A stretch of 46,293 bases of DNA from a virus. Taxonomy: Duplodnaviria > Heunggongvirae > Uroviricota > Caudoviricetes. Position numbers and translations under genes: made by a program. The notes under the pieces are model-generated. The model did no database searches, had not been told where the DNA came from, and saw only the letters and a program-made list of their open reading frames with translations. Shown here piece by piece: positions 1 to 46,293 of this stretch. The number at the start of each line of letters is the position of its first letter. Within the stretch, counting starts at the first letter, position 1. The stretch is taken from IMG/VR virus record IMGVR_UViG_2925897562_000003; one strand, written 5' to 3'.

Positions 1-1209
1 ATGTCGGTTTTTCATAACTGGCTGCTTGATATCGCAAGCGGGAATTACTTTATCTACATCAAACGCCTTTCTGCAAACGACACAGGCGCAACAGGTGGCC
101 ATCAGGTCGGACTTTATATCCCCTCAAATATCGTTGAAAAGCTTTTTCCATCTATCAATCATACTCGCGAACTGAACCCTTCAGTCTTCCTTACTGCGCA
201 TGTATCATCCCATGATTGCCCTGATACCCAAGCACGCGCAATTTATTACAACAACCGTTATTTTGGTAAGACCCGAAACGAAAAAAGAATTACGCGCTGG
301 GGGAGAGGAAGTCCATTACAGAACCCTGAAAATACAGGAGCCCTCACAATTCTTGCTTTCAGGTTAAACGAACAGAACACTGACTGTTCCGAGGTAGATA
401 TATGGGTCTGCGTCAATCCCGATGAAGAGGATATCATCGAGTCTGCTATTGGCGAAATCATACCTGGAACCCTAATTTCCGGCCCTGCCGGACAAATTTT
501 GGGCGGATTGTCTCTTCAGCAAACTCCAGTAAATCATAAATATGTTATTCCTGAAGACTGGAAGAAGCGTTTTCCTTCTGGAAACGAAATTATTCAATAT
601 GCTGCTGGCCATTATGCTAAAAACTCCAAGGATCCAGATGAGCAACTGATTGACCGTCGGCGTGTCGAGTATGATATTTTTCTACTCGTCGAGGAATTAC
701 ATGTTCTTGATATTATTAAGAAAGGATTCGATTCTGTAGATGAGTTTATTGCATTAGCCAACTCTGTCAGTAATCGACGTAAATCAAGGGCAGGCAAATC
801 ACTTGAACTTCACCTAGAGAAGCTTTTTATCGAGCACGGACTACGGCATTTCTCCACTCAGGCAGTTACTGAAGGTAATAAAAAACCAGATTTCCTGTTT
901 CCTTCAGCAGAGGCATATCATAACGTTGAATTTCCTGTAGAAAACTTACGTATGCTGGCAGTAAAGACCACCTGCAAAGATCGCTGGCGTCAGATACTGA
1001 ATGAAGCAGATAAAATCCATCAGGTACATTTATTTACACTGCAAGAAGGTGTTTCTTCAGCACAATACCGAGAAATGAAAGATGCGGGTGTCAGACTCGT
1101 TGTACCATCAACTTTACATAAAAAATACCCAGAAGCAGTTAGAGAAGAATTAATAACGCTCGGAGCATTCATTACTGAGCTGATAGAGCTTTACGCTGAA
1201 CTATCATAG
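1..1209 (+). CDS. ecoRIIR: Type II (IIE) restriction endonuclease, EcoRII-like
   Basis: 402-aa ORF starting at window position 1; N-terminus MSVFHNWLL...YIKRLSANDTGATGGHQVGLYIP matches my recollection of R.EcoRII (about 404 aa); convergent with a Dcm-like methyltransferase 35 bp downstream. Confidence 0.8.
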   Translation: MSVFHNWLLDIASGNYFIYIKRLSANDTGATGGHQVGLYIPSNIVEKLFPSINHTRELNPSVFLTAHVSSHDCPDTQARAIYYNNRYFGKTRNEKRITRWGRGSPLQNPENTGALTILAFRLNEQNTDCSEVDIWVCVNPDEEDIIESAIGEIIPGTLISGPAGQILGGLSLQQTPVNHKYVIPEDWKKRFPSGNEIIQYAAGHYAKNSKDPDEQLIDRRRVEYDIFLLVEELHVLDIIKKGFDSVDEFIALANSVSNRRKSRAGKSLELHLEKLFIEHGLRHFSTQAVTEGNKKPDFLFPSAEAYHNVEFPVENLRMLAVKTTCKDRWRQILNEADKIHQVHLFTLQEGVSSAQYREMKDAGVRLVVPSTLHKKYPEAVREELITLGAFITELIELYAELS

Positions 1210-1214
1210 GCTGA

Positions 1215-1237
1215 CTCCCGGCTTAAAAGGCCGGGAG
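1215..1237. terminator. Hairpin between convergent R and M genes (CTCCCGGC-ttaaaag-GCCGGGAG); no clear U-tract on either side
   Basis: Perfect 8-bp inverted repeat read directly between the R stop (1207-1209) and M stop (1244-1246). Confidence 0.35.
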
Positions 1238-1243
1238 ATGTTC

Positions 1244-2677
1244 TCAAGGCTGCCCAGTCTTACCAGCATCAGCAGAAACAGCTTTGAGGATATAGGGTTC
1301 CAGAAGTCTGGCAACAGCTTCAAATACTGGCACCACAACTGAGTTACCGAACTGCCGATATGACTGAGTATCTGAAACCGGAATACGGAATGGTTTCCCT
1401 CCAGGTTTTTCAAATCCCATAAGGCGTGCGCACTCTCGGGGAGTCAGCCTGCGTGGTCGACGAGCCTGATTACTCTCATTCATAAAGTCAGCCTCTCCCG
1501 TTGCCATATCCCAACCACGATCAATAAGAATTTCTGATCCGTCTTTGTGATATCTGGCAGAAAGTGTGCGTGCAATGCTTTCCTTATTCTCAGGATTGAC
1601 CAACCCAAAGCCAAAACCATTCCCCTTGGCTGCATGCTTTTTGGCGTAGTTATAAAGGTACTCCCATAGTTTTGGCGTAAGTATATATTTACTGTCGACT
1701 ACAGGCTCCAGCAATTCACCAAATGATGGGCGGTGTTCCGGATAAAAACGACTGATATCACGCAAGGTAAACCCCTTGTGAATATTCAGATCTCGTCTAA
1801 ATCCGACCAGAACAATACGTTCACGATGCTGAGGCAAAAAATGCTTCCCATCGATAATCTTTGGATCGTTTTTTCCCATTTCTGCAGCATCGGCAACTTC
1901 GTAGCCCAGCTCGTCAAGGGTCTCCATAATGACTTTGAAAGTTTTACCCTTATCATGGCTCTTCAGATTTTTGACATTTTCCAGCACAAAAATTGCCGGT
2001 TTTTTTGCTCGTATAATACGTGCCACGTCAAAAAAAAGTGTTCCTTGTGCTTCACATTCAAAACCATGCGCACGACCAAGTGAGTTTTTCTTACTAACAC
2101 CAGCAAGGCTAAATGGCTGGCACGGGAACCCCGCAAGAAGCACATCATGATCCGGCACATGCTCATCAATATATGCATAAGCATCCGTTTCCAATACATC
2201 GGTTTTATCACTCAGCGTGACTTCCCGAATATCGAGATTGAATTTATGCACCTGTTCATCGTTAAACCAGTTGGCCTTGTATGTACGCACAGCATCTTTA
2301 TTCCATTCACTGGTAAAAACACACTGGCCTCCAATGGCCTCAAAACCTTTCCGTATCCCTCCAATTCCAGCAAATAAGTCAATGAAGCGGAAAGCATATT
2401 CCGGATGGTTTGCAGGTGGTTCTGGTAGCATCTTACGCAGAAGAGACTCTTCTACTGAAGTCAACGATTTTGGTAAACACTTGCCATTAATCCAGCGGTT
2501 AATGGTTTCACGGCTCCACTCATTTTTTCCGACTTTTCTCAGTAATTCAGCCACATACTTCTGATCATAGATTTCCAGCACTTTCTCGATAAGCTTTTTA
2601 TCATTTTCCTGTCGCAGCTTTTCTTCCGCCTCGGCTTCCTTCAGCAGATGCTGTGCCAACACTTCAAATTCAGACAT
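1244..2677 (-). CDS. ecoRIIM: DNA cytosine-5 methyltransferase, Dcm / M.EcoRII-like (CCWGG family)
   Basis: Motifs FAGIGG, PCQPFS, ENVKNL, QFGNSV and near-identity along its length to my recollection of E. coli Dcm; ATG at 2677 gives 477 aa (ORF track begins 14 codons upstream at 2719). Confidence 0.9.
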
Positions 2678-3038
2678 AATTCCTCCAAGGGGTCTAATGG
2701 GTGAAACTTTATCACTCATTCAACCCAGAAGGAAATGTTTTATCTGGATATTTAAACAGTGACTACAACGTAATCTAGCACTGGTGATGCTTTGTTAGGC
2801 ATAGAGAATCATTCTATATACGACTAATGACAGAAAAACAGCAGACAAGTAGTTTGTTCATAAATTAACGCATACTATGTGTCTACGGTTTTCGAGACCG
2901 GTCCAATCATCAAACGAAACATAAAATTAGCTCACATTATGAGGAAAAGTATCTTTTTTGTACTATGTAAATTCAAAGGCTTAGCCTCATTTCTCCGATG
3001 GTTTTCTCAACACTACTGGTTGTGAGCCCTTGCAATGA

Positions 3039-3857
<819 letters not shown>

Positions 3858-3876
3858 GTCTTTAAGTGATAAGCAT

Positions 3877-3924
3877 AAACCGCAGCACGTCATGCATACG
3901 TCGTGTCTGCGGTTTTTCTTTTTT
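3877..3924 (+). terminator. Rho-independent terminator after the GIY-YIG gene (stem AACCGCAG/CTGCGGTT followed by TTTTTCTTTTTT)
   Basis: Hairpin plus long T-tract read directly; ends just before the tfa stop on the opposite strand. Confidence 0.5.
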
Positions 3925-3926
3925 GC

Positions 3927-4511
3927 TTACACGGTGTCTGGTTCTTCTGGCCACTCAATATCCGGTGCAGTTGATGTATCAACACGGTTCAGCAACACCC
4001 GATACTTTTTCCAGGCTTCCAGCAATGAGGTTTCTTCCTCCGTTGCGATTTCCAGATCTACAGCATCCTGAAGTGGCGCAATATGCTCACTGGCTACCTG
4101 CATCAGGCTGTTTTTTGTTTCTTCTGCCTCCCGGATCCGGAACAGTTTTTCTGCTTCCGTATCCTTCACCCAGGCTGTGCCGTTCCACTTCTGATATTCC
4201 CCTCCCGGCGACAACCAGGTAACATTTTCCGGTAACGGACCGAGTTCAGAAATAAATAACGCGTCGCCGGAAGCCACGTCATAAACCGTTTTACCCCGAT
4301 GGTCTTCAACGAGATGCCACGATGCCTCATCACTGTTGAAAACAGCCACGAAGCCTGCCGGAATATCTGGTGGTGCAATATCGGTACTGTTTGCTGGCAG
4401 ACCTGTATGAGGCGGAATATATGCGTCACCTTCACCAATAAATTCATTAGTTCCGGCCAGCAGATTATAAATTTTTATGGTCCGTGTTTGTTCACTCATT
4501 CTGAATGCCAT
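3927..4511 (-). CDS. tfa: Tail fiber assembly protein (lambda Tfa-like)
   Basis: 194 aa immediately downstream of stf; composition and position typical of lambdoid Tfa. Confidence 0.8.
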
Positions 4512-7471
4512 TATGCAAGCCTCACAATATAGTTAAATGCGATGTTTTTGACGGTGTTTTCCGCGTTACCAGCAGCGTTAACGGTGATGGTGTGTCCATG
4601 TGAACCAATCGCAACGGAGTGCGTATGAGCACCAATACCGACAGTATGCGCGTGTGCACCTGCAGATGCTGCTGTGCCGGACAGTGAATGGCTATGATTA
4701 CCATCTGTACTGGTATTCGCTAACCACCCCGTAGACATACCTACTGAGCCTTGTACACCCCAGGTATTTTGACCTGAGCTTGTATAACCATATTGATAAG
4801 TATCTTTAAAAACACTGGGGTTAAATCGACGGCCATCTCTATGGCTGTGATTACCAGCTGCATTCGTGCTGCCACTTAAACTATGGGTATGCGCACCAGT
4901 GTTATTCGTGGATTTAGTGCCGTAATCAAACGACGATGTGGTTTTCGTCCCCAAATCCGTACTGGATGCGCTGGCGCTGTGGGTATGCGATTTAATGCCG
5001 TCCTGTTCCTGAGACAATACGGCCCGACCACTGGCAGGTTTGCCCTTAATCGTCCAGCCACGCATATCAGGGATCACGCCTGACGGATAAGCGGCTGCAA
5101 GTTTCGGGTATGCAGATTTGTCAAAAGTCTGCCCCTGCATCAGGGCATAGCCAGACGGAACGGTATCTGATGGCCACGGGATTGGTGCGCCAGGCGGATA
5201 AAACTGCTCTGATGGCGTATAGAGTGAATAAACTGTACCGTCCGTTAACCCTTCCGGCTTATTAGCAGAATATGCTGGTGACGTATGAATCGTCACGCTG
5301 GCATTACTGGTATAATCCCATTGAATATTTACACCAGTCGCATAATTTCCGATTGCAACGTAAATATCGTAAGTATCACCAGATGTATTGACCCAGGCAA
5401 AATTTGTAAACCCTGTCGATGTGCGCTGCCATAAAGCACCAGTAATCCCCTTCGGATTACCATTACCTGCACGTAAAACAAGTTCAGATATACCTGCCTG
5501 TTGAGGTGACCCCACGTTAAATCCAGCGCCACCAATCAACGTAATTGAAACAACAGAACTCGCCTGTGGCATGGTTACCGTTGCTAATTTGAACCAACCA
5601 GCACCACCGCTGAATGACATTGTTGTTGAGTTAAGCGTACCAATATCTTTCGGCGTCAGTGTTATATCCGCTGAAAGCGCCTTACCATTCACCTTACGGG
5701 CAGAAGGTACCCGACCATTCGCATTGTCATTAGCTGCTTTCACTGCTTTCGGTGTCGCAGCAAGCGTTTCAGATGTGCTGTTGGTTGCACTACTGAGCTG
5801 GACAATTCCTTTTTGTGCTGTCGTAGCGTCCTGTGCGGTGTATTTCCCGTTAGCCAGGTCATACGCGGCCTTAACGGCTTTTGGCGTTGCCGCCTGTGAC
5901 TCGGAAGTGCTGTTAGTCGCACTGCTGAGCTGAACTATCCCTTTCTGTGCTGTCGTTGCATCCTGTGCGGTGTATTTCCCGTTAGCCAGGTCATACGCGG
6001 CCTTAACGGCTTTTGGCGTTGCCGCCTGTGACTCGGAAGTGCTGTTGGTCGCACTGCTGAGCTGTACTATCCCCTTTTTCGTCGTGCTCGCATCCTCAAG
6101 CGCCACGGCGGATGCAATATCCTCTGCCCGTTTTGCTGCTGTCTCGGCGCGCGTTGCCGCGGATTCCGCCGTACTTTTGCTCTGTGCTGCCGCTGCCGCA
6201 CTGCCAGCAGCCTCTGTCGCCTTCGTGGATGCCGTCGTGGCGCTGCCCCTCGCTGCTGACGCCTGTCTGGTCGCCTCATCTTTTGAAGCAGACGCAGATG
6301 ATGCCGATGACGCCGCCGAACTGGCGGACGATGCGGCAGCCGTTTTTGAGGATTCTGCGCTGGTTTCCGACGCTTTCGCGTTCGTTTCGGATGTCTTCGC
6401 TGCGGAAGCAGACCTCGCTGCTGCGCTGGCCTGTTCAGTGGCTTCGCCAGCCTTCGTTGTGGCTGTTGAAGCGGATGATGCGGCGCTTTCTGCCGATTTT
6501 CCGGCGGCGGTGGCACTGACTGCTGCCTCCTCTGCCTTAATGGACGCCTCACGGGCCGATGATGCAGCTGCTGTCTCAGAGTCTGCCGCAGCTGAGGCGC
6601 TCTGTTCCGCTGCCGTTTCAGAAGACCTGGCATTCGTCTCGGACGTTTTTGCCGCCTTCACGGAATTTCCTGCCGCCGTTGCCGAGGAGGCTGCACTGCT
6701 GGCGCTTGTGGAGGCGTTCGTTTCTGATGATTTTGCCGCCTCTTTGGAGGCCGCCGCATCTCTGGCTGAAGTGGCGGCTTCTGACGCTTTCGTCGTCGCA
6801 GTGGATGCAGAAGTGGCTGCTGATTTTTGTGACGCTGCAGCATTCGTTTCTGACGTTTTCGCCGCACCGGCACTGGTGGCCGCCGCGCTTTTTGAGGACT
6901 CTGCAGCGGCAGCACTTTTTGATGCTTCAGTGGCCTTTGTTGATGCCGTTCCTGCGCTGGAAGACGCCTCCTGAGCCGAAGTCGCGGCCTGTCCGGCTGA
7001 CGTGCTGGCTGCACGCGCTGAGCCTGCAGCATCAGTCGCATGGGTTGCCGCCTCACGGGCAGATGTGCCGGCATCACTGGCTGACTTCTTCGCGGCTGCC
7101 GTGTTCTGTGCCACCGCGGACGCGTTACGCGCCACCTCTTCCACCATCAGTTCAAAACGGCGCAGAGCCTCAGGACGGGCATCATCCTCTGTCATGGCAC
7201 CGAGAAAATCATTCAGCGTACCGGGTTGAGAATCTTCATACACGGTAATGGTCCCGGCATGTGATGGCGGGAATCCCTCCACCAACAGACTGACGCTGTA
7301 CTGACCATACTCGACGTCCATTGTGTAACGCCCGGCTTCATCCGGGTTTTCTGAGGCCACTGTGTTCACCACCACCGTGGTGCTGTTGCGCCTGGCCTTT
7401 AGCTGAATGGTGCAGTTTTGTATCGGCTTACCTGCGCCATCTTTCAGTACACCTGAAATCCGTACTGCCAT
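4511..7471 (-). CDS. stf: Side tail fiber protein (lambda Stf-like) with expanded repeat region
   Basis: N-terminus [26 protein letters not shown] and C-terminal His-rich GAHTHS/HSH repeats match lambda Stf; Ala/Ser/Thr-rich central region; three 44-aa repeats [15 protein letters not shown]... Confidence 0.85.
5730..6125. repeat. Tandem 132-bp direct repeats (about three copies, first copy diverged) inside stf
   Basis: Identical blocks ...tagccaggtcatacgcggccttaacggcttttggcgttgccgcctgtgactcggaagtgctgtt... begin at 5851 and 5983 (period 132 bp). Confidence 0.7.
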
Positions 7472-8205: not shown

Positions 8206-11200
8206 TCAACGAATACTGATGCCGGAAGCCGCTTTTTTGGTCACAATCACCGTACAGTCGGTGATATTGCCTGCCCCCTGATTGCCTTTCTGGAAAATCT
8301 TAAACTCCAGAGTGACGCTACCACCACCACTAGGCATATCAATAACTGCACTGTAACTACCGGGAATGGCCCCTTTAGTTTCTCTGGATGCGATTAATAC
8401 GCCGTTTTTGCGAACTTCAAAACCATAACCCGTGTATCGCGTGCCTCCCGGGTTATTTCCGCTCCCCGGATCGTCATACGCTATACCGTTAAAAATAATG
8501 GGCGGAATAATAATCTGGCGGTCAAAGTTATGATCATCGCTGATGGTGACTGTAACCGTACCGTTTGGTGTTTCCGTGTTACCCCACGTACCGACTTTTT
8601 TCGGGAAGGCTTTTGATACAGCTTTAACGAAATCTCCTCTGACCTGGGTCGCCTCCAGCATGCCCTTAATCGTACAGTTCTGGTTAATCGTGACATTGTT
8701 GAGCGTTCCTGAGTTCGCATTCACACTGCCACTGATATCCGCATTTTTCGCCGTCAGTCTCCCGTCTGATGTCAGGGAAAATGCCGGAGGATTACCGCCG
8801 CTGGTAATGGTGGGGGCCGTCAGGCGTTTCAGGAACACTTCATTCATGAATATCTGATCGCCCTGACCAACAAACATCGGCTTTGTGTTGCCATTCGCAG
8901 GATTAATCATCGCAATCCTGTCTGCTGCCAGCAGCACCTGACTCTGCATGCCGTCAGGGGTGTTCTCAATACCGGCACCGATACCCGCAATATAAAGGCG
9001 TCCGTCCTGCATCTGCTGCAGCTTCACTGCCCACATGCTGTTCAGGTTATTATTTGTATCAACCTGAACCTTCTGTATCTGCTGGATCGCTGCACTCTGG
9101 TCTTCCAGTTTCTTATTGACGGTCTGTGTTATTTCATTGCTGACATCCGTTATGGACGTCCTGATTTCAGTCAGGTCAGGCGCAAGCTGACCGTTATCAA
9201 TCTGCGTCCACAGCTCCTGAGCCAGATGGGTTTTCCCTATCTCGCCTTTGAAAAAATCCAGATAGCCTGATGCATCATCACTCGGCTGACCGACAGCCTC
9301 CACGAATGCCGATTTGCCAACGGTGTTCACACTGCGAACGTAAAAATAATAATCATGGCCCGGTTTGATATTGATACTGGCGGCTATCCAGTACAGTGCC
9401 GTACCAAGATAACGCGCGCTGGTTTCAACCTGCCTGATATCCGCAATCCGTTTTTCCGAGAACCAGAACTCAAACTGTACCGTCGGGTCATAAACCGCAA
9501 GATGCGGCGTGGCGGTTATCTGAAAATAGCCCGGCGTCAGCTCAATCCGCGACGGCGCTGCCGGTGCGGCAATCCGGAACGATACCGACGCCGGATCGCC
9601 CTGCTGCCCCCACGCATTTACTGCCCGGACTGTCAGCCTGTAGTTCCCCAGAGCCAGTTGTGTGAAGCGGTAAGTGGTTTCCGTCGTCCGGGCCGTGCTG
9701 ACCAGCCGCTCACGGCCGTCATCCGCTGCCACGGTCAGGCGAAGCAGGAAGCTCACGCCCTTCACCACCTTCGGCGTGTCCCAGCGCGCCAGCACCTGGT
9801 ATTCCCCGCTGTCTGCGGTGACTTCTGCGGTCAGGTGCTGCACCGCTGGCGGCGTGACACCATTTACCGTGCCGCTCTGGTCGCCGTCAAAGTGCGCCCC
9901 GTTATCCACGATGGCCTCTTTTTCCGGTACATGCTGCACGGCGGTGATGGCATACGTGCCGTCGTCGTTCTCACGGATACTCACGCAGCGGAACAGGCGC
10001 TGGCGCAACGTCGGCAGCTTCAGCCCCCATACGCTGTATTCAGCAACGCCGTCAGGAACACGGCTCACTTTCACCTTCACGCCGTCGGTGACGGACTGAA
10101 CCTCCACGCTGACCGGACTCCCCTGCCCGTCAACCAGGCTTATCAGCGTGGTGCCGGAAGATGGCAGCGTGATTTCACGGTCGAGCGTCAGCGTCCGGGT
10201 CTGGCTGTTTACCGCCAGCACGCGCCCGCCGGTGCGGATACCGGCATAGTCATCATCGCAGATTTCAATGACATCGCCCGGTACATGGCGAAGCCCTTCG
10301 GCACCCACGCTGAAGTCCACGGTCTGCGTTTCCAGCAGTTCTGTTTTAATCAGCCACAGCCCGGCGCGGTGTGCCTGCCCCCGGCTGGTACAGCCAAAAG
10401 CATCCATCTTCGTGACGTTACGACCGTAACGGGCAATGGCCTGCGTGTCCTCCACAAGCTCTGTCGCCGTCTCCCAGCCGTTATTCGGGTCAATCCAGTT
10501 CACCTCAACGGCATTATGGCGGTCCTTCAGGGCGCTGAAGCTGTAGCGGAACGGCGCACCATCATCCGGCATCACCACATTACTGCGGTTATAGGTCCAC
10601 ACCTTATCCGACGGTCGGTCCTGCACGAACGTCAGCGTCTGCCCGTTCCATACCGGCATACAGCGCATCGCAGAGCAGAAATCACTGAGCACATCCCACG
10701 CCTTGCGCTGTGTGGTCAGGTACGCATTACAGGTGATGCGCGGCTCCGTGCCGCCAAAACCGTCCGGCACCGACTGATCGCAATGCTGGCCGATGACATA
10801 CAGCGCCCATTTGTCCACATCCGCCGCACCAAGACGTTTCCCCATGCCGTAGCGCGGATGGGTCAGCATATCCCACAGACACCAGGCCATGTTGTTGCTG
10901 TATGCTGGCTTAAACGTTCCGTCCCAGATACCGCTGTATTGCCGCGTCTGCGGGTTATAGTTCGACGGCACCTGCAGAATGCGCCCGCGAAGATGATAAT
11001 TACGGCTCACCTGCTGGCTGCCGAACTGCTCCGAATCCACCTGTACGCCGACCAGTGCCGTATTCGGGTAGCCCTGTTTCACATCGATGATTTCGGTGTA
11101 TGACGACCAGAGCGTTTTGTTCTGCAGCTGGTCTGTGGTGCTGTCCGGCGTCATCCTGCGCATCCGGATATTAAACGGGCGCGGCGGCAGGTTATCCACC

Positions 11201-28682: not shown

Positions 28683-29735
28683 TTATTTCCCCACCAGCTC
28701 GTTTATCTCTTTCACTGTCTGGTTAAACCGCTCTGACTCAAGCTCAACACCTAAGGCCCGACGCCCCAGCGCCATTGCTGCTTTTATTGTGGAACCGGAT
28801 CCCATAAAAAAATCAGCAACCAGATCACCAGGTCGACTACTGGCATTGATTATTTGCCTGAGCATATCCACCGGTTTCTCACACGGATGTTTACCCGGGT
28901 AGAACTGAACGGGTTTATGCATCCAGACATCGGTATAAGGCACGGAGACTGATACGGAGAAATAGCGCCGGAGAGATTTAAACTCATCCAGCAATTCAGA
29001 ATATTTGCGATTCAGTGAATCATAAGATGCCACCAGCTGGTGGTGTGGTTGTTCCAGTTGTTGTTCCTGAAACTTCTCTGCCGCTATACGGGAAAACAGT
29101 GCCTGTAACTTCCGATAGTCAGCCTCATTCGGCAACTGCCACTGACTGGCACCAAACCAGTGGGAAACCATATTTTTCTTACCTGTGGCTTCGGCAATTT
29201 GTTTTGCCGTTATACCCAGTTCGGCACGAGCATCCCTGAAATACGATATCAGCGGTGCCATTATGTGCTGTTTGAGTTCCCTTTCTTTTGCCGCATAGCC
29301 GTCACTTTTGCCGCGATATGGCCCCTGGTAATGTTCAGCAAACAGAACGCGCTCTGTGGCAGGAAAATATGCGCGCAGACTTTCTTTATTACACCCATTC
29401 CAACGTCCGGACGGCTTCGCCCAGATGATATGGTTAAGCACGTTGAAACGTTCACGCATCATGATCTCAATATCAGATGCCAAGCGATGCCCACAGAACA
29501 GGTAAAGGCTTCCGGCAGGTTTTAACACCCGCCAGAACTGGGCCAGACAGTGGTCCAGCCACTTAAGGTAATCTTCGTCCCCTTTCCACTGATTGTCCCA
29601 ACCGTTGGGTTTCACCTTGAAGTAAGGCGGATCGGTAACAATCAGGTCAATGGAATCATCAGGCAGGGACTGAATAAAATGCAGGCAATCAGCGTTGATT
29701 AAATCAACACTGTTTATTTTTACAGTATTTTTCAT
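28683..29735 (-). CDS. Orphan DNA amino-methyltransferase (N6-adenine or N4-cytosine; DPPY motif)
   Basis: IVTDPPYF catalytic motif near the N-terminus plus C-terminal FFMGSGST AdoMet motif; no partner endonuclease adjacent. Confidence 0.8.
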
Positions 29736-30353: not shown

Positions 30354-31280
30354 ATGAAAGTTAGAAGCATAGGATTTACAATAAATAACAATAACAAAAA
30401 TATTAATACCGTTGACGTAATGAATGCTTTTATCAACGCATCAAACAGAGAACACAGTCGCACAGACTATACTCGTAAAATTCTCATTTCGGATGTGAAT
30501 GATTTCTATTATGGATTAGTTGTCACATTCAGAAACCAAAAAAAGAACTGTAAGTCGCAATTTGTTGATGGTAAATTCCAGCTTAAAATTGAAGATCTTC
30601 AAGGAAGTGACAAACTTGCTAATTTCAACTTTTTCTTAATTAAAAAATCTAATCTTTCTGGTCTCTATATGTATCACCACGGTTCATGCAGTCTGAACAC
30701 TCTCTTTTCTCATTTAGAAACAATAAGTAATGAATTTATCAGAAATCAAAATAAAGAAGAAATAAAAAAACTTGGTGATAAACCAAAACAAAAAGAAGTA
30801 ACTGCAATAAATAAAAAATACAAAGAAAGACTGACTTTCAGCCTTATGACAAATAAAAACAACATTCAGAGTGTTTTATGTCAATTCAAAGAGATTAAAA
30901 GCACAAGCTTTAAATTTAATTATATAGATTTTAAAGGTGGACCAATGACTGCGCTTGAACAATTTGTTAACACCACCACAATAGATATGAATTTTAATTC
31001 TAGCGACAGAACAAAAGTGCAACAACTATCTCAGAATCTTTCAAATATTTATAATTCTATGAGTGGAGTTGCTAAAGCACAGGTTATTGCAGTAAACCAT
31101 GCAGGAATAGAAAAAACCATTGATTTTATGAACTGCCCTGTTTTTTTTGAAACATACGATTTCGATATAATTGCCGATAAAGTCAATGGATTGACAAACG
31201 ATAATTATACAACAAACCCTGTTTTTGATATGATAAAAGAAGAAATGCTGAACGGGACGAATAAAAATGCCTTTATATGA
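30354..31280 (+). CDS. Hypothetical protein (308 aa), visibly AT-rich gene, Asn/Lys-rich; first gene of the accessory cassette
   Basis: Long uninterrupted ORF on the strand opposite to the late genes; codon usage clearly unlike the surrounding phage genes (runs such as aataacaataacaaaaatattaat). Confidence 0.6.
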   Translation: MKVRSIGFTINNNNKNINTVDVMNAFINASNREHSRTDYTRKILISDVNDFYYGLVVTFRNQKKNCKSQFVDGKFQLKIEDLQGSDKLANFNFFLIKKSNLSGLYMYHHGSCSLNTLFSHLETISNEFIRNQNKEEIKKLGDKPKQKEVTAINKKYKERLTFSLMTNKNNIQSVLCQFKEIKSTSFKFNYIDFKGGPMTALEQFVNTTTIDMNFNSSDRTKVQQLSQNLSNIYNSMSGVAKAQVIAVNHAGIEKTIDFMNCPVFFETYDFDIIADKVNGLTNDNYTTNPVFDMIKEEMLNGTNKNAFI

Positions 31281-43584: not shown

Positions 43585-43791
43585 ATGCTGAACCTCGATT
43601 GTGTTCCAATCTCAACTTATTGCAAAGAAACTGGCGAAACTCCTGAAGCAATAAACAAACGTGTACAGCGCGGTGTTTGGCGTGAAGGTGTTCAGGTTTT
43701 AAAGGTTGAAGGCGTTAAGGAGAGGTGGATTGATCTTAGTGAGGTTGCAAAATGGGCCAGACAAAACTGCTCAAACTACCGCGCGGCGTAA
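43585..43791 (+). CDS. xis: Excisionase-like DNA-binding protein
   Basis: Small basic protein immediately upstream of and overlapping int; ATG at 43585 with GGAG RBS. Confidence 0.6.
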   Translation: MLNLDCVPISTYCKETGETPEAINKRVQRGVWREGVQVLKVEGVKERWIDLSEVAKWARQNCSNYRAA

Positions 43792-44927
43792 CAATCAGGA
43801 AACACCGCCAGGGCGAAACGATCAATATAACTTTCACCTACAAAGGAGTTAAATGTCGTGAGCCTCTTTCCAATCTGGAAGTAATACCAAAGAACATAAA
43901 ATACGCCGAGCGCACACTCGGCGAAATTCATAATAAGATCGAAAGGGGAACATTCATTTATGCGGAATATTTTCCCCGTTCTGCTCGTTTGAAAATTTTT
44001 GGTAATGCTGCTGCAGGCAAAACGGTAAAAATGTACCTGGACGAATACCTTGAAATCTGCGAAACGAGAAAACTTTCACCCTCTACGATTGGTGGTTATA
44101 AAAAATGCCGTAGTGCGTTAGCCTCACTCCACATTTGCCCTGCAAGTGAATTAACACCAGCAATCCTGAAAGCGTGGATTCAAAGCCAGAAAACGACCTT
44201 AAAAACAATTCGCAACCAGTTATCTTTCCTGCGGTCAGCACTTGATGAAGCCGTAACCGATGGGGTACTTCAAATTAACCCCGTATCGTTGGTAACTGCT
44301 TCGCGCTACCAAAGTGATAAGTCAGAAGCAGAAAGCAGCTACGTGGTTGATCCGCTATCACCAGCAGAAGTTGATGCATTACTAGCAGCAGCCGGAAACA
44401 AACAATGGGAAAATCTGTTCCGGTTCGCTATACATACAGGCCTGCGTAGTTCTGAATTATGTGCCCTTCGATGGCGTGATATCGACTTTGTTGGAAAAAC
44501 TGCCCATGTCCAGAGCGCAAGTGTTGTCGGTGTTATCAAAGGAACAAAGACAAAAGCCGGTACTCGTAAAGTTGAACTGACAGAAGAGGCAATGTTGGCG
44601 CTGATAAATCAGAAGCCATTTACATTCATGAAGGATGCTACTGTCTTTGAAGATCCAAAGACAAACAAACCGTGGGCCAGCGCCGATGCGATAAGGAAAA
44701 AAGCGTGGATACCAACCTTACGTAAAGCAGGTATCCGGTACCGTAACCCATATCAGACCAGGCATACATTCGCCACCAGCCATATCAGCCGTGGTGCGAA
44801 CCTGTTCTGGCTTGCAGGCCAGATGGGCCATAAGGGACCAGAAATGCTATTTCGTCACTATGGCAGTTACCTTGCTGCATATGACGGACATACCGCTAAA
44901 AATACTAATGATACAAAACAGGCTTGA
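43752..44927 (+). CDS. int: Tyrosine recombinase / phage integrase
   Basis: 391 aa; C-terminal catalytic region (...HTGLRSSELCALRWRDID..., ...RHTFATSHISRGANLFWLAGQMGHKGPEMLFRHYGSY) with R..HxxR..Y arrangement. Confidence 0.9.
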   Translation: MGQTKLLKLPRGVTIRKHRQGETINITFTYKGVKCREPLSNLEVIPKNIKYAERTLGEIHNKIERGTFIYAEYFPRSARLKIFGNAAAGKTVKMYLDEYLEICETRKLSPSTIGGYKKCRSALASLHICPASELTPAILKAWIQSQKTTLKTIRNQLSFLRSALDEAVTDGVLQINPVSLVTASRYQSDKSEAESSYVVDPLSPAEVDALLAAAGNKQWENLFRFAIHTGLRSSELCALRWRDIDFVGKTAHVQSASVVGVIKGTKTKAGTRKVELTEEAMLALINQKPFTFMKDATVFEDPKTNKPWASADAIRKKAWIPTLRKAGIRYRNPYQTRHTFATSHISRGANLFWLAGQMGHKGPEMLFRHYGSYLAAYDGHTAKNTNDTKQA

Positions 44928-45222
44928 TGCTGCCCGAACAAATAGCCACTGAAACCTGATAAAAAGTTATTTGTGATGTGGTTATGTTCGTCATATCCAC
45001 ATCATACATACTTAAACATAAGGCACTTTTTACCTTGCAAAAATTCGAACCAAGTATATATGTTATAGGTGAACTTGGTACTCAGGCAGCTGTCCTAGTA
45101 CTAGGAACACGCGGGAAATCTTGGAGCCAGTACGTAGATTATGGTAAAATCCCGCGCCCCGTTCTGCGGGGAGCAATAAATGCCTCAAAAGGATACATTG
45201 GGGGGACTGAAAGGAGGTCTTT

Positions 45223-45471
45223 ATGTCAGAACTAGTCATGAAGATGTTTGGGCTGAATGATTTGGTCAAAGGCGGACAAGCCATGGCCGATCGTTTGAAC
45301 AAATCTGGTGTTAAAAACATCAAGGTCGTAGGGCGTGGTGCAGTTATTGTAGACCCATCTACTGACCCAGAAAAAATCACTCAGCTTAGGAAAGCAGCTA
45401 GAAAATTCGTCGAGCAGGATGCAAAAGCTGTTGCAGCCGCTAAAGCTAACTCAATGGACAATGACGACTAA
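45223..45471 (+). CDS. Hypothetical small soluble protein (82 aa)
   Basis: Strong AGGAGGT RBS; immediately followed (3-nt gap) by the membrane protein gene. Confidence 0.5.
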   Translation: MSELVMKMFGLNDLVKGGQAMADRLNKSGVKNIKVVGRGAVIVDPSTDPEKITQLRKAARKFVEQDAKAVAAAKANSMDNDD

Positions 45472-45474
45472 CAA

Positions 45475-46293
45475 ATGTTTGCATTGCTGATCATTCCACT
45501 TTTAGTAAGTGGATCCTTACTGGTTACATCGCCCCATAACATCAAATTATTCTATCGACTCCACCGTTACGACGGCCAGCTTCTCTATATGAAGGTGGCC
45601 ACGTACGGTGTGTACTCGTTCATTGTTGCAGTCGTGCTGGCGTATGCAACCAAGTACTTTATACCAAGCCTTACACTGGTCACATGGGTATCACATCTTA
45701 TTGATGGTAGTGCAGACCCTAAAGAAAACAGGATAACATCATGGCTCATCCTGCTATCAGTGGCGACTTGTGGAGTTGCTTTTATTTGGTTGCAGATATG
45801 CAAATTTCGTATGTTTGTGGCAGCAAAAACTATTAGTTCTGCATCCAATAATGCAATTTCTATCAATTTCGCAAAGCAACTAATCAGGCTTAATGAGTTG
45901 GAAAAACTGTTGTCTGATGGCTCACTTGGTCAGCTATTCTTTGATTCAGCGACTACAAACAGACCGGTACTGATAAGCCTGAAATGCCGCAAAGTATATG
46001 TCGGAACAGTTAACATGATTAGTGAGCCAAACGAAAAACAAGGCCCTAACCTTGAAATTTCTATTAGCCCAATCATATCTGGTTACAGGGACAAGGACAC
46101 ACTAAGGGTCCTGTTTTCAAATGATTACAACGATCTTGATGGAGTTGATACCAGTATCATATTTCCATTAAGTGAGGTTTCGCATGCTTCTTGGTTCAAT
46201 ATGGATATACATGAAAAAGTAGACAATAACCGAGAGAAGAAACCAGAAACAAACCGCAAGAAAAAACGTAAATATGGCAGGACTACGAATTGA
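45475..46293 (+). CDS. Hypothetical membrane protein (N-terminal TM helices, C-terminal soluble domain with basic tail)
   Basis: 272 aa; hydrophobic segments LLIIPLLVSGSLLV, VYSFIVAVVLAYA, WLILLSVATCGVAFIWL; AT-rich codon usage; ends at the window edge. Confidence 0.55.
   Translation: MFALLIIPLLVSGSLLVTSPHNIKLFYRLHRYDGQLLYMKVATYGVYSFIVAVVLAYATKYFIPSLTLVTWVSHLIDGSADPKENRITSWLILLSVATCGVAFIWLQICKFRMFVAAKTISSASNNAISINFAKQLIRLNELEKLLSDGSLGQLFFDSATTNRPVLISLKCRKVYVGTVNMISEPNEKQGPNLEISISPIISGYRDKDTLRVLFSNDYNDLDGVDTSIIFPLSEVSHASWFNMDIHEKVDNNREKKPETNRKKKRKYGRTTN

Follow-up and report, generated by a model that had tools for sequence, protein, structure and literature searches.

The DNA examined here, which we call the window, is the complete 46,293-nucleotide stretch of IMG/VR virus record IMGVR_UViG_2925897562_000003 (Caudoviricetes), and it opens with two convergent genes that make up an EcoRII-family restriction-modification (R-M) cassette. 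The first gene, R (1-1209, + strand), encodes a 402-aa type IIE restriction endonuclease, identified by Pfam, PADLOC and its match to Protein Data Bank (PDB) entry 1NA6. The second, M (1244-2677, - strand), encodes a 477-aa C5-cytosine DNA methyltransferase that belongs to the Dcm/M.EcoRII subfamily and bears a DNA_meth_N domain at its N terminus; it was identified by Pfam, NCBIfam and PDB entry 3ME5. The convergent stop codons are separated by a 34-bp spacer, read from the sequence (1210-1243). Both open reading frames (ORFs) are intact and lie where an earlier note on this DNA had placed them, and neither the ORF list nor the raw sequence shows a frameshift in R. The same note had given the cassette a span of 1-2719; the extent of R stands, while position 2719 is the first ATG of the longest reading of M, which would yield 491 aa. 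We set the start of M at the ATG at 2677, which yields 477 aa, because a GGAGGA Shine-Dalgarno sequence precedes it and RefSeq uses the same start in identical genomes.

Pfam divides R into a B3-like effector domain, EcoRII-N (PF09217, residues 16-163; E 3.9e-61, 148 of 154 profile positions), and a PD-(D/E)XK catalytic domain, EcoRII-C (PF09019, residues 227-391; E 2.4e-71, full profile 1-165). The PADLOC REase_II model matches R at 1.5e-233, and alignment with EcoRII in 1NA6 is gap-free across 401 residues (E 1e-242), with 346 identical (86%) and 55 substituted. RefSeq WP_000110239.1 and WP_001288444.1 are the same proteins as R and M, respectively, with no differences, and carry generic names; NCBIfam holds no model for R. 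Structures already solved at 86-97% identity were taken as answering the question of identity.

We compared R with EcoRII at the functional residues listed from DNA-bound EcoRII structures (PMC2770665), using EcoRII numbering and the alignment to 1NA6. All 30 published residues are retained. Catalytic residues E271, D299, K324 and E337 (4/4), the CC:GG recognition residues K328, D329 and R330 together with N260 and R262, and the flipped-base pocket formed by R222, E225, Y226, F229, R265 and A266 are identical. So are all 15 DNA contacts of the effector domain: K23, N28, H36, Q37, Y41, N61, R81, Y85, K92, T93, R94, E96, R98, T100 and R101. Two of these, Q37 and Y85, read the central A:T pair in EcoRII (PMC2770665). 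Position 88 is Ala in the 1NA6 crystal sequence and Arg in both R and the plasmid allele described below. The 1NA6 protein is an engineered R88A mutant.

M matches the Pfam models DNA_methylase (PF00145, E 4.7e-78) and DNA_meth_N (PF18284, E 7e-27), scores 927 bits against a cut-off of 710 for the Dcm subfamily (NCBIfam NF007772, PRK10458), and is matched by Shigella Dcm (3ME5) at E 5e-209. It carries the C5-methyltransferase motifs FAGIGG (residue 102, motif I), PCQ (185, IV), ENV (233, VI), QHRER (283, VIII), RRLTPRE (409, IX) and GNSV (444, X). The domains and 86% identity of R, its conserved residues and the Dcm-subfamily membership of M together support an EcoRII-like, type IIE system that is probably CCWGG-specific, as the earlier note had proposed. 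That note had named frameshifts, missing nuclease motifs or another specificity family as signs against its assignment, and we found none of these in the cassette. Because of the 86% identity and the residue conservation, R would be expected to cleave unmethylated CCWGG in an effector-site-dependent manner.

The R-M genes of an Escherichia coli NDM-5 plasmid (L009) were used as the classical allele, because the plasmid R differs from 1NA6 at only 4 positions. Between window and plasmid, 350 of 402 residues are identical in R and 432 of 477 in M (90.6%). The interval between motifs VIII and IX of M, within which the target specificity of C5-methyltransferases is set, contains only 6 substitutions relative to the plasmid M.EcoRII-type allele. 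Nucleotide homology to the plasmid cassette forms one continuous 2.83-kb block with 79.6% identity; it includes 67 bp of the sequence upstream of R and, at its other end, 82 bp upstream of M (to window 2759). By the Nei-Gojobori method, synonymous divergence (dS) is 1.69 for R and 1.65 for M, with ratios of nonsynonymous to synonymous divergence (dN/dS) of 0.046 and 0.034, respectively, so that synonymous sites in both genes are near saturation and their dS values nearly equal. The near-equal dS and low dN/dS show that R and M diverged from the plasmid cassette together, in the distant past, and that strong purifying selection acted on them. Such selection on both proteins argues against a decayed endonuclease.

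EcoRII of enterobacterial resistance plasmids (1NA6, 3HQF, 3HQG) thus resembles the window cassette in its convergent gene order, protein lengths (R 402/404 aa, M 477 aa), domain architecture, protein identity (R 86-87%, M 91%) and every published functional residue. At the nucleotide level the two are only 79-81% identical, and because synonymous sites are also near saturation, the window cassette is a distinct, old lineage. Their settings differ as well. Whereas EcoRII is found on conjugative plasmids beside IS26/IS1 and resistance genes, the window cassette is chromosomal, carried by a prophage at ssrA, the transfer-messenger RNA gene, and has the nuclease gene CMoRE as its neighbour.

Homology to the plasmid cassette extends into sequences that may control expression. 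The M upstream control region (2678-2759, - strand), delimited by alignment, contains a 22-nt block, CTGTTTAAATATCCAGATAAAA, that is the same in window and plasmid, as well as a CCAGA-N13-TCTGG inverted repeat. M.EcoRII is reported to have a fused repressor domain and to repress its own gene (PMC12707154); by analogy, this region is a candidate promoter/operator for M autoregulation. Alignment with the plasmid cassette shows that the region upstream of R retains a TATAAT-like element and a GGGGA ribosome-binding site. The R/M spacer carries an 8-bp GC-rich hairpin (CTCCCGGC/GCCGGGAG), a putative and possible bidirectional transcription stop; it has no U-tract and was not called by a consensus terminator scan. 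Near R and M, the consensus promoter and terminator scan gave no more sites than in shuffled sequence, and its sole call was a terminator between ssrA and R.

The left flank of the prophage is absent from the window, and E. coli genomes with 99.9-100% identity over window positions 1-3900 were used instead. In strains 2014C-3655, C31 and MB06171, ssrA ends 234 bp before the R start, and these 234 bp are non-coding in the matching genomes. The window does begin exactly at the R start codon, as the earlier note remarked, but this is an artefact of where the record was cut. The far end of the MB06171 prophage is 100% identical to the last 2.8 kb of the window, and a degenerate copy of the ssrA 3' end (37/40) lies 72-110 bp beyond the window end in this strain (L004). 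Inside the window, no ssrA 3' copy separates the cassette from the tail genes, the best match being a 16-nt chance hit. The whole window thus lies between the ssrA integration repeats, and the R-M cassette is therefore prophage cargo, located between the attachment site and the tail-fibre genes. Whether it was cargo or a neighbouring island had been left open in the earlier note; the ssrA flanks in the matching genomes settle it as cargo.

Independent support for this placement comes from NZ_CP081794.1 (L012), a circular, 43.7-kb phage-like record in which the order is int, DinI, an att-like core, R, M, CMoRE and the tail genes. In the same record, att-like sequences at 4742-4850 and 8905-9001 bracket the R-M-CMoRE block; the second is 72% identical and is followed by an acyltransferase gene. 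A prophage remnant next to paoD and pinE contains the block too, and there it starts at exactly the last 28 nt of ssrA. The att-like sequences on both sides in NZ_CP081794.1 suggest that the block can swap between prophages through recombination of the att arms.

The cassette and CMoRE have a guanine-plus-cytosine (GC) content of 42-45%, compared with 51% for the rest of the prophage, and are thus foreign in composition. The left junction of the R-M insertion lies approximately 70-80 bp upstream of R. We place the right junction near window position 2870-2886, because prophages with CMoRE but without R-M share sequence from about this point on. It falls within the AT-rich spacer past the M control region (2760-3083); GC content over 2678-3083 is 35.5%. 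Between ssrA and R, approximately 84-107 bp upstream of window position 1 (L001 11894-11917), there is a strong hairpin resembling a terminator, AAAAGCCCGC-TTAT-GCGGGCTTTT and then a run of T. It is common to many ssrA prophages without R-M, and the R-M insertion starts just past it.

On the right, the cassette is followed by a gene that the earlier note's account did not include. This gene (3084-3857, + strand) encodes the 257-aa GIY-YIG type IV nuclease PD-T4-3/CMoRE, as identified by PADLOC PD-T4-3 (PDLC04031; 8.8e-139, positions 1-255/256) and by the E. coli O157:H7 CMoRE structure, PDB 9U75 (E 5.5e-170, covering the full 257 aa); NCBIfam contains no corresponding model. The next gene, the tail fibre assembly gene tfa (3927-4511, - strand; Pfam Caudo_TAP 7e-45, RefSeq), is the first structural gene of the prophage and marks the inner edge of the cargo slot. 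The cassette had been described as lying just beyond tfa. It is indeed near the tail-fibre genes, but CMoRE intervenes. CMoRE is not part of the R-M system, though the two are co-inherited.

CMoRE degrades the 5-hydroxymethylcytosine (5hmC) and glucosyl-5hmC (ghmC) DNA of T-even phages, while unmodified or 5-methylcytosine (5mC) DNA is neither bound nor cut (PMC12923530, 2026). Because 5mC DNA is left alone, CMoRE is compatible with the adjacent C5-methyltransferase, and the targets of the two restriction systems in the slot complement each other. In this the slot resembles combined type II and type IV restriction islands, where an R-M system is accompanied by a nuclease that depends on modification. 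In related ssrA prophages the ~155 nt that follow ssrA, terminator hairpin included, are the same, and beyond them the cargo differs: one has RnlAB and a hypothetical gene, and another has Bro-N and a helix-turn-helix/ImmA pair followed by CMoRE. Prophages are known to have hotspots for defence cargo. The att-to-tail-fibre slot, which holds RnlAB, CMoRE or R-M alternatively, is similar to these.

An R allele at least 99% identical to that of the window is present in 262 of 20,395 E. coli records, and R is annotated as an intact coding sequence in every record inspected. On plasmids, R is matched at 311 places, and the full-length plasmid matches sampled are approximately 79% identical. The ssrA-R junction was found in 128 genomes and the three-gene R-M-CMoRE block in 243. 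The CMoRE region is matched in 866 genomes, some of them without R-M; CMoRE is therefore more widespread than the cassette. Among 50,697 deposited phage genomes there was no nucleotide match to the cassette, and a protein search of the phage collection returned only 4 distant records, all below 40% identity: two metagenomic fragments and two records of Burkholderia phage KL3. Of 5426 E. coli genomes, 5366 contain a dcm-type sequence (~69% identity); one genome with R-M, NZ_CP027351, has a second match to M.

Taken together, these findings make it very probable that the window carries a functional type IIE EcoRII-family R-M system as the cargo of a lambda-like prophage. The prophage has inserted into the 3' end of ssrA, and the system occupies its variable slot between att and the tail fibre. 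The steps by which it would act are carried over from the characterized EcoRII system. M would transfer a methyl group from S-adenosylmethionine to C5 of the inner cytosine in each strand of CCWGG, and its N-terminal domain would repress the M promoter. EcoRII is an autoinhibited dimer whose N-terminal domains must bind unmethylated effector sites before cutting (PMC2770665). By analogy, the B3-like domains of R would bind unmethylated CCWGG effectors and so release the C-terminal PD-(D/E)XK core, which would flip out the central A:T pair, read the CC:GG halves through K-D-R, and cut. DNA with two or more unmethylated sites would be cleaved and methylated resident DNA spared.

If expressed in the lysogen, the R-M system would restrict incoming phage or plasmid DNA without Dcm-type methylation, and we infer from this a defence phenotype whose likely benefit is the restriction of DNA arriving in that state. 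CMoRE would cover T-even phages, whose hydroxymethyl- or glucosyl-cytosine evades enzymes like R. The count of CCWGG sites proposed by the earlier note gave 103 in the window, so the prophage itself would depend on methylation. We also considered whether the prophage avoids CCWGG, but the two baselines disagree (92 sites expected from base composition, 155 from a third-order Markov model), and no claim is made. The earlier note reasoned that the prophage must tolerate CCWGG methylation; with dcm in 5366 of 5426 genomes, this methylation costs it nothing. Since host Dcm methylates CCWGG in almost every E. coli, lysogenizing a new host should be harmless.

Several points weigh against this interpretation and call for caution. 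The att argument leans on other genomes, as the window lacks its left flank. No strong sigma-70 promoter was detected by the consensus scan ahead of R or M, so that expression in the lysogen is only presumed, and our literature searches found no biochemical or genetic test of the window allele. The 55 substitutions relative to EcoRII could affect the activity of R or its regulation. Finally, most DNA arriving from other E. coli is already Dcm-protected, so that the defensive benefit is limited and any selective advantage uncertain.

The near-universal presence of dcm also bears on a second possible role, in which the cassette acts mainly as an addiction module that stabilizes the prophage by post-segregational killing, with defence secondary. 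EcoRII is a documented post-segregational killer, and the cassette is on a mobile element that can be lost; however, a solitary Dcm attenuates host killing after EcoRII loss (PMC3874152). Since almost all E. coli carry a dcm-like gene, and NZ_CP027351 has its second match to M in addition to the R-M, CCWGG would stay protected after prophage loss. We therefore consider addiction improbable as the main role.

R could also be inactive or attenuated. The locus would then merely add one more Dcm-like methyltransferase, which might, for instance, shield phage DNA from EcoRII-type enzymes in new hosts. Host dcm would make loss of R harmless, and solitary methyltransferases are common in phages, including one in this prophage at 28683-29735. 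The pattern of constraint does not fit such decay: the R ORF is intact with all 30 functional residues, dN/dS is 0.046 over a dS of about 1.7, and the allele recurs at 99% identity or more in 262 records, intact in all that were inspected. An inactive R is thus quite improbable, and the constraint favours the functional R-M system described above.

Regarding its position, the cassette could instead be a separate genomic islet between ssrA and the prophage, outside the phage genome. Its lower GC content, the many related ssrA prophages without it, and the att-like sequences on both sides of the R-M-CMoRE block in NZ_CP081794.1, which hint at behaviour as a unit, are consistent with an islet. 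Yet the block has no integrase or transposase alongside it, no att copy separates it from tfa in the window, and the only ssrA 3' repeats are those that bracket the whole prophage. In addition, int and the tail genes adjoin the block without a break in the circular 43.7-kb phage-like element, and the block moves with the phage-side att arm into the remnant beside paoD/pinE. A separate islet is thus very unlikely, and the data favour placement within the prophage.

A different specificity, such as the CCNGG of Ecl18kI and SsoII, is exceedingly unlikely: although EcoRII-C, PspGI and Ecl18kI have a common fold and CC:GG read-out (PMC2770665) and discrimination of the central base is subtle, the residues implicated in A:T discrimination (E225, F229, Q37 and Y85) are unchanged, Ecl18kI and PspGI match R only at E of about 1e-4 compared with 1e-242 for EcoRII, and M is a Dcm-subfamily enzyme with 6 differences from the plasmid allele between motifs VIII and IX.

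More tentatively, the prophage-borne R-M system and CMoRE might form a co-inherited, two-layer surveillance of cytosine state that host Dcm makes safe to carry, a proposal we hold to be possible but doubtful. Unmodified CCWGG may be cut by R, 5mC ignored as self, and 5hmC or ghmC cut by CMoRE. Host Dcm may remove the risk of R cutting the DNA of a new host before methylation is established. If true, this protection would explain why CCWGG specificity in particular rides on coliphages.

The cassette can also be compared with other known relatives. E. coli/Shigella Dcm (3ME5), a solitary CCWGG C5-methyltransferase, has the same NCBIfam subfamily and N-terminal domain as M, with nucleotide identity between the genes of approximately 69%. 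Dcm has no partner endonuclease, whereas M is paired with an intact EcoRII-type R. The dcm gene is itself paired with vsr; in the cargo slot of the window, neither the annotation nor the ORFs show a vsr-like gene. Burkholderia phage KL3 provides a published precedent for a phage-borne EcoRII relative, as this temperate phage carries an EcoRII-C/Vsr/Dcm module proposed to cut non-self DNA (PMC3091744). The KL3 nuclease matches only the C-terminal half of R (query residues 169-395, 39% identity), and the KL3 genes are co-directional with vsr between them, in contrast to the full two-domain enzyme without vsr in the window. PspGI, Ecl18kI and SsoII (CCWGG/CCNGG) are like EcoRII in their catalytic fold, in reading CC:GG through K/R-D-R and in flipping nucleotides (PMC2770665). 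These enzymes lack the EcoRII-N effector domain and are only distantly alike in sequence; the match of PspGI and Ecl18kI to R is weak.

The structures, mechanism and regulation of the EcoRII family are already known, and with every known functional residue kept in the window allele, the mechanistic importance of this cassette is small. Our literature searches for prophage-borne EcoRII in E. coli returned plasmid or general references only, with no characterization of the window allele and no account of its prophage setting. For phage and host ecology its value is modest: what the locus adds is an EcoRII-type system with both domains complete, disseminated in E. coli by lambda-like prophages that integrate at ssrA. 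It offers a natural setting for asking how useful a CCWGG restriction enzyme can be when Dcm methylation is nearly universal in the species, and for testing whether type II and type IV restriction act as complements when a single prophage carries both.

Other features of the prophage were noted. The prophage tyrosine integrase (43752-44927, + strand; Pfam Arm-DNA-bind_2, Phage_integrase) lies at the far end of the att-bounded element. Past the far att, a second integrase-bearing element follows in tandem; strain 2014C-3655 instead has the type III effector genes espK, espN and nleL downstream (L004 9109-10350; L003 30153-38001). The interval from the integrase to the far att contains two or three ORFs (about 45223-45471 and 45475-46293 on the + strand, 45063-45380 on the - strand); they have no Pfam or PADLOC match and correspond only to PHROGs of unknown function (phrog_35771, phrog_3630). 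Because strain 2014C-3655 has an AAA ATPase and a DNA adenine methylase at this position, the region looks like a second variable cargo slot.

The methyltransferase at 28683-29735 (- strand), a solitary enzyme of 350 aa near the lysis and late genes, matches Pfam N6_N4_Mtase and PADLOC MTase_II (5e-152), and its counterpart in strain 2014C-3655 is a truncated pseudogene. A 308-aa ORF at 30354-31280 (+ strand), on the strand opposite the surrounding late genes, corresponds along its entire length to phrog_2802, a family of unknown function, but to nothing in Pfam or PADLOC; it could be a moron. The tail fibre gene (4511-7471, - strand) encodes a 986-aa protein with a long low-complexity stretch rich in Ala, Ser and Thr and three near-identical repeats of ~45 aa. 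It is in this gene that genomes with the same R-M block begin to differ from the window, with mismatches clustering from about position 7130.

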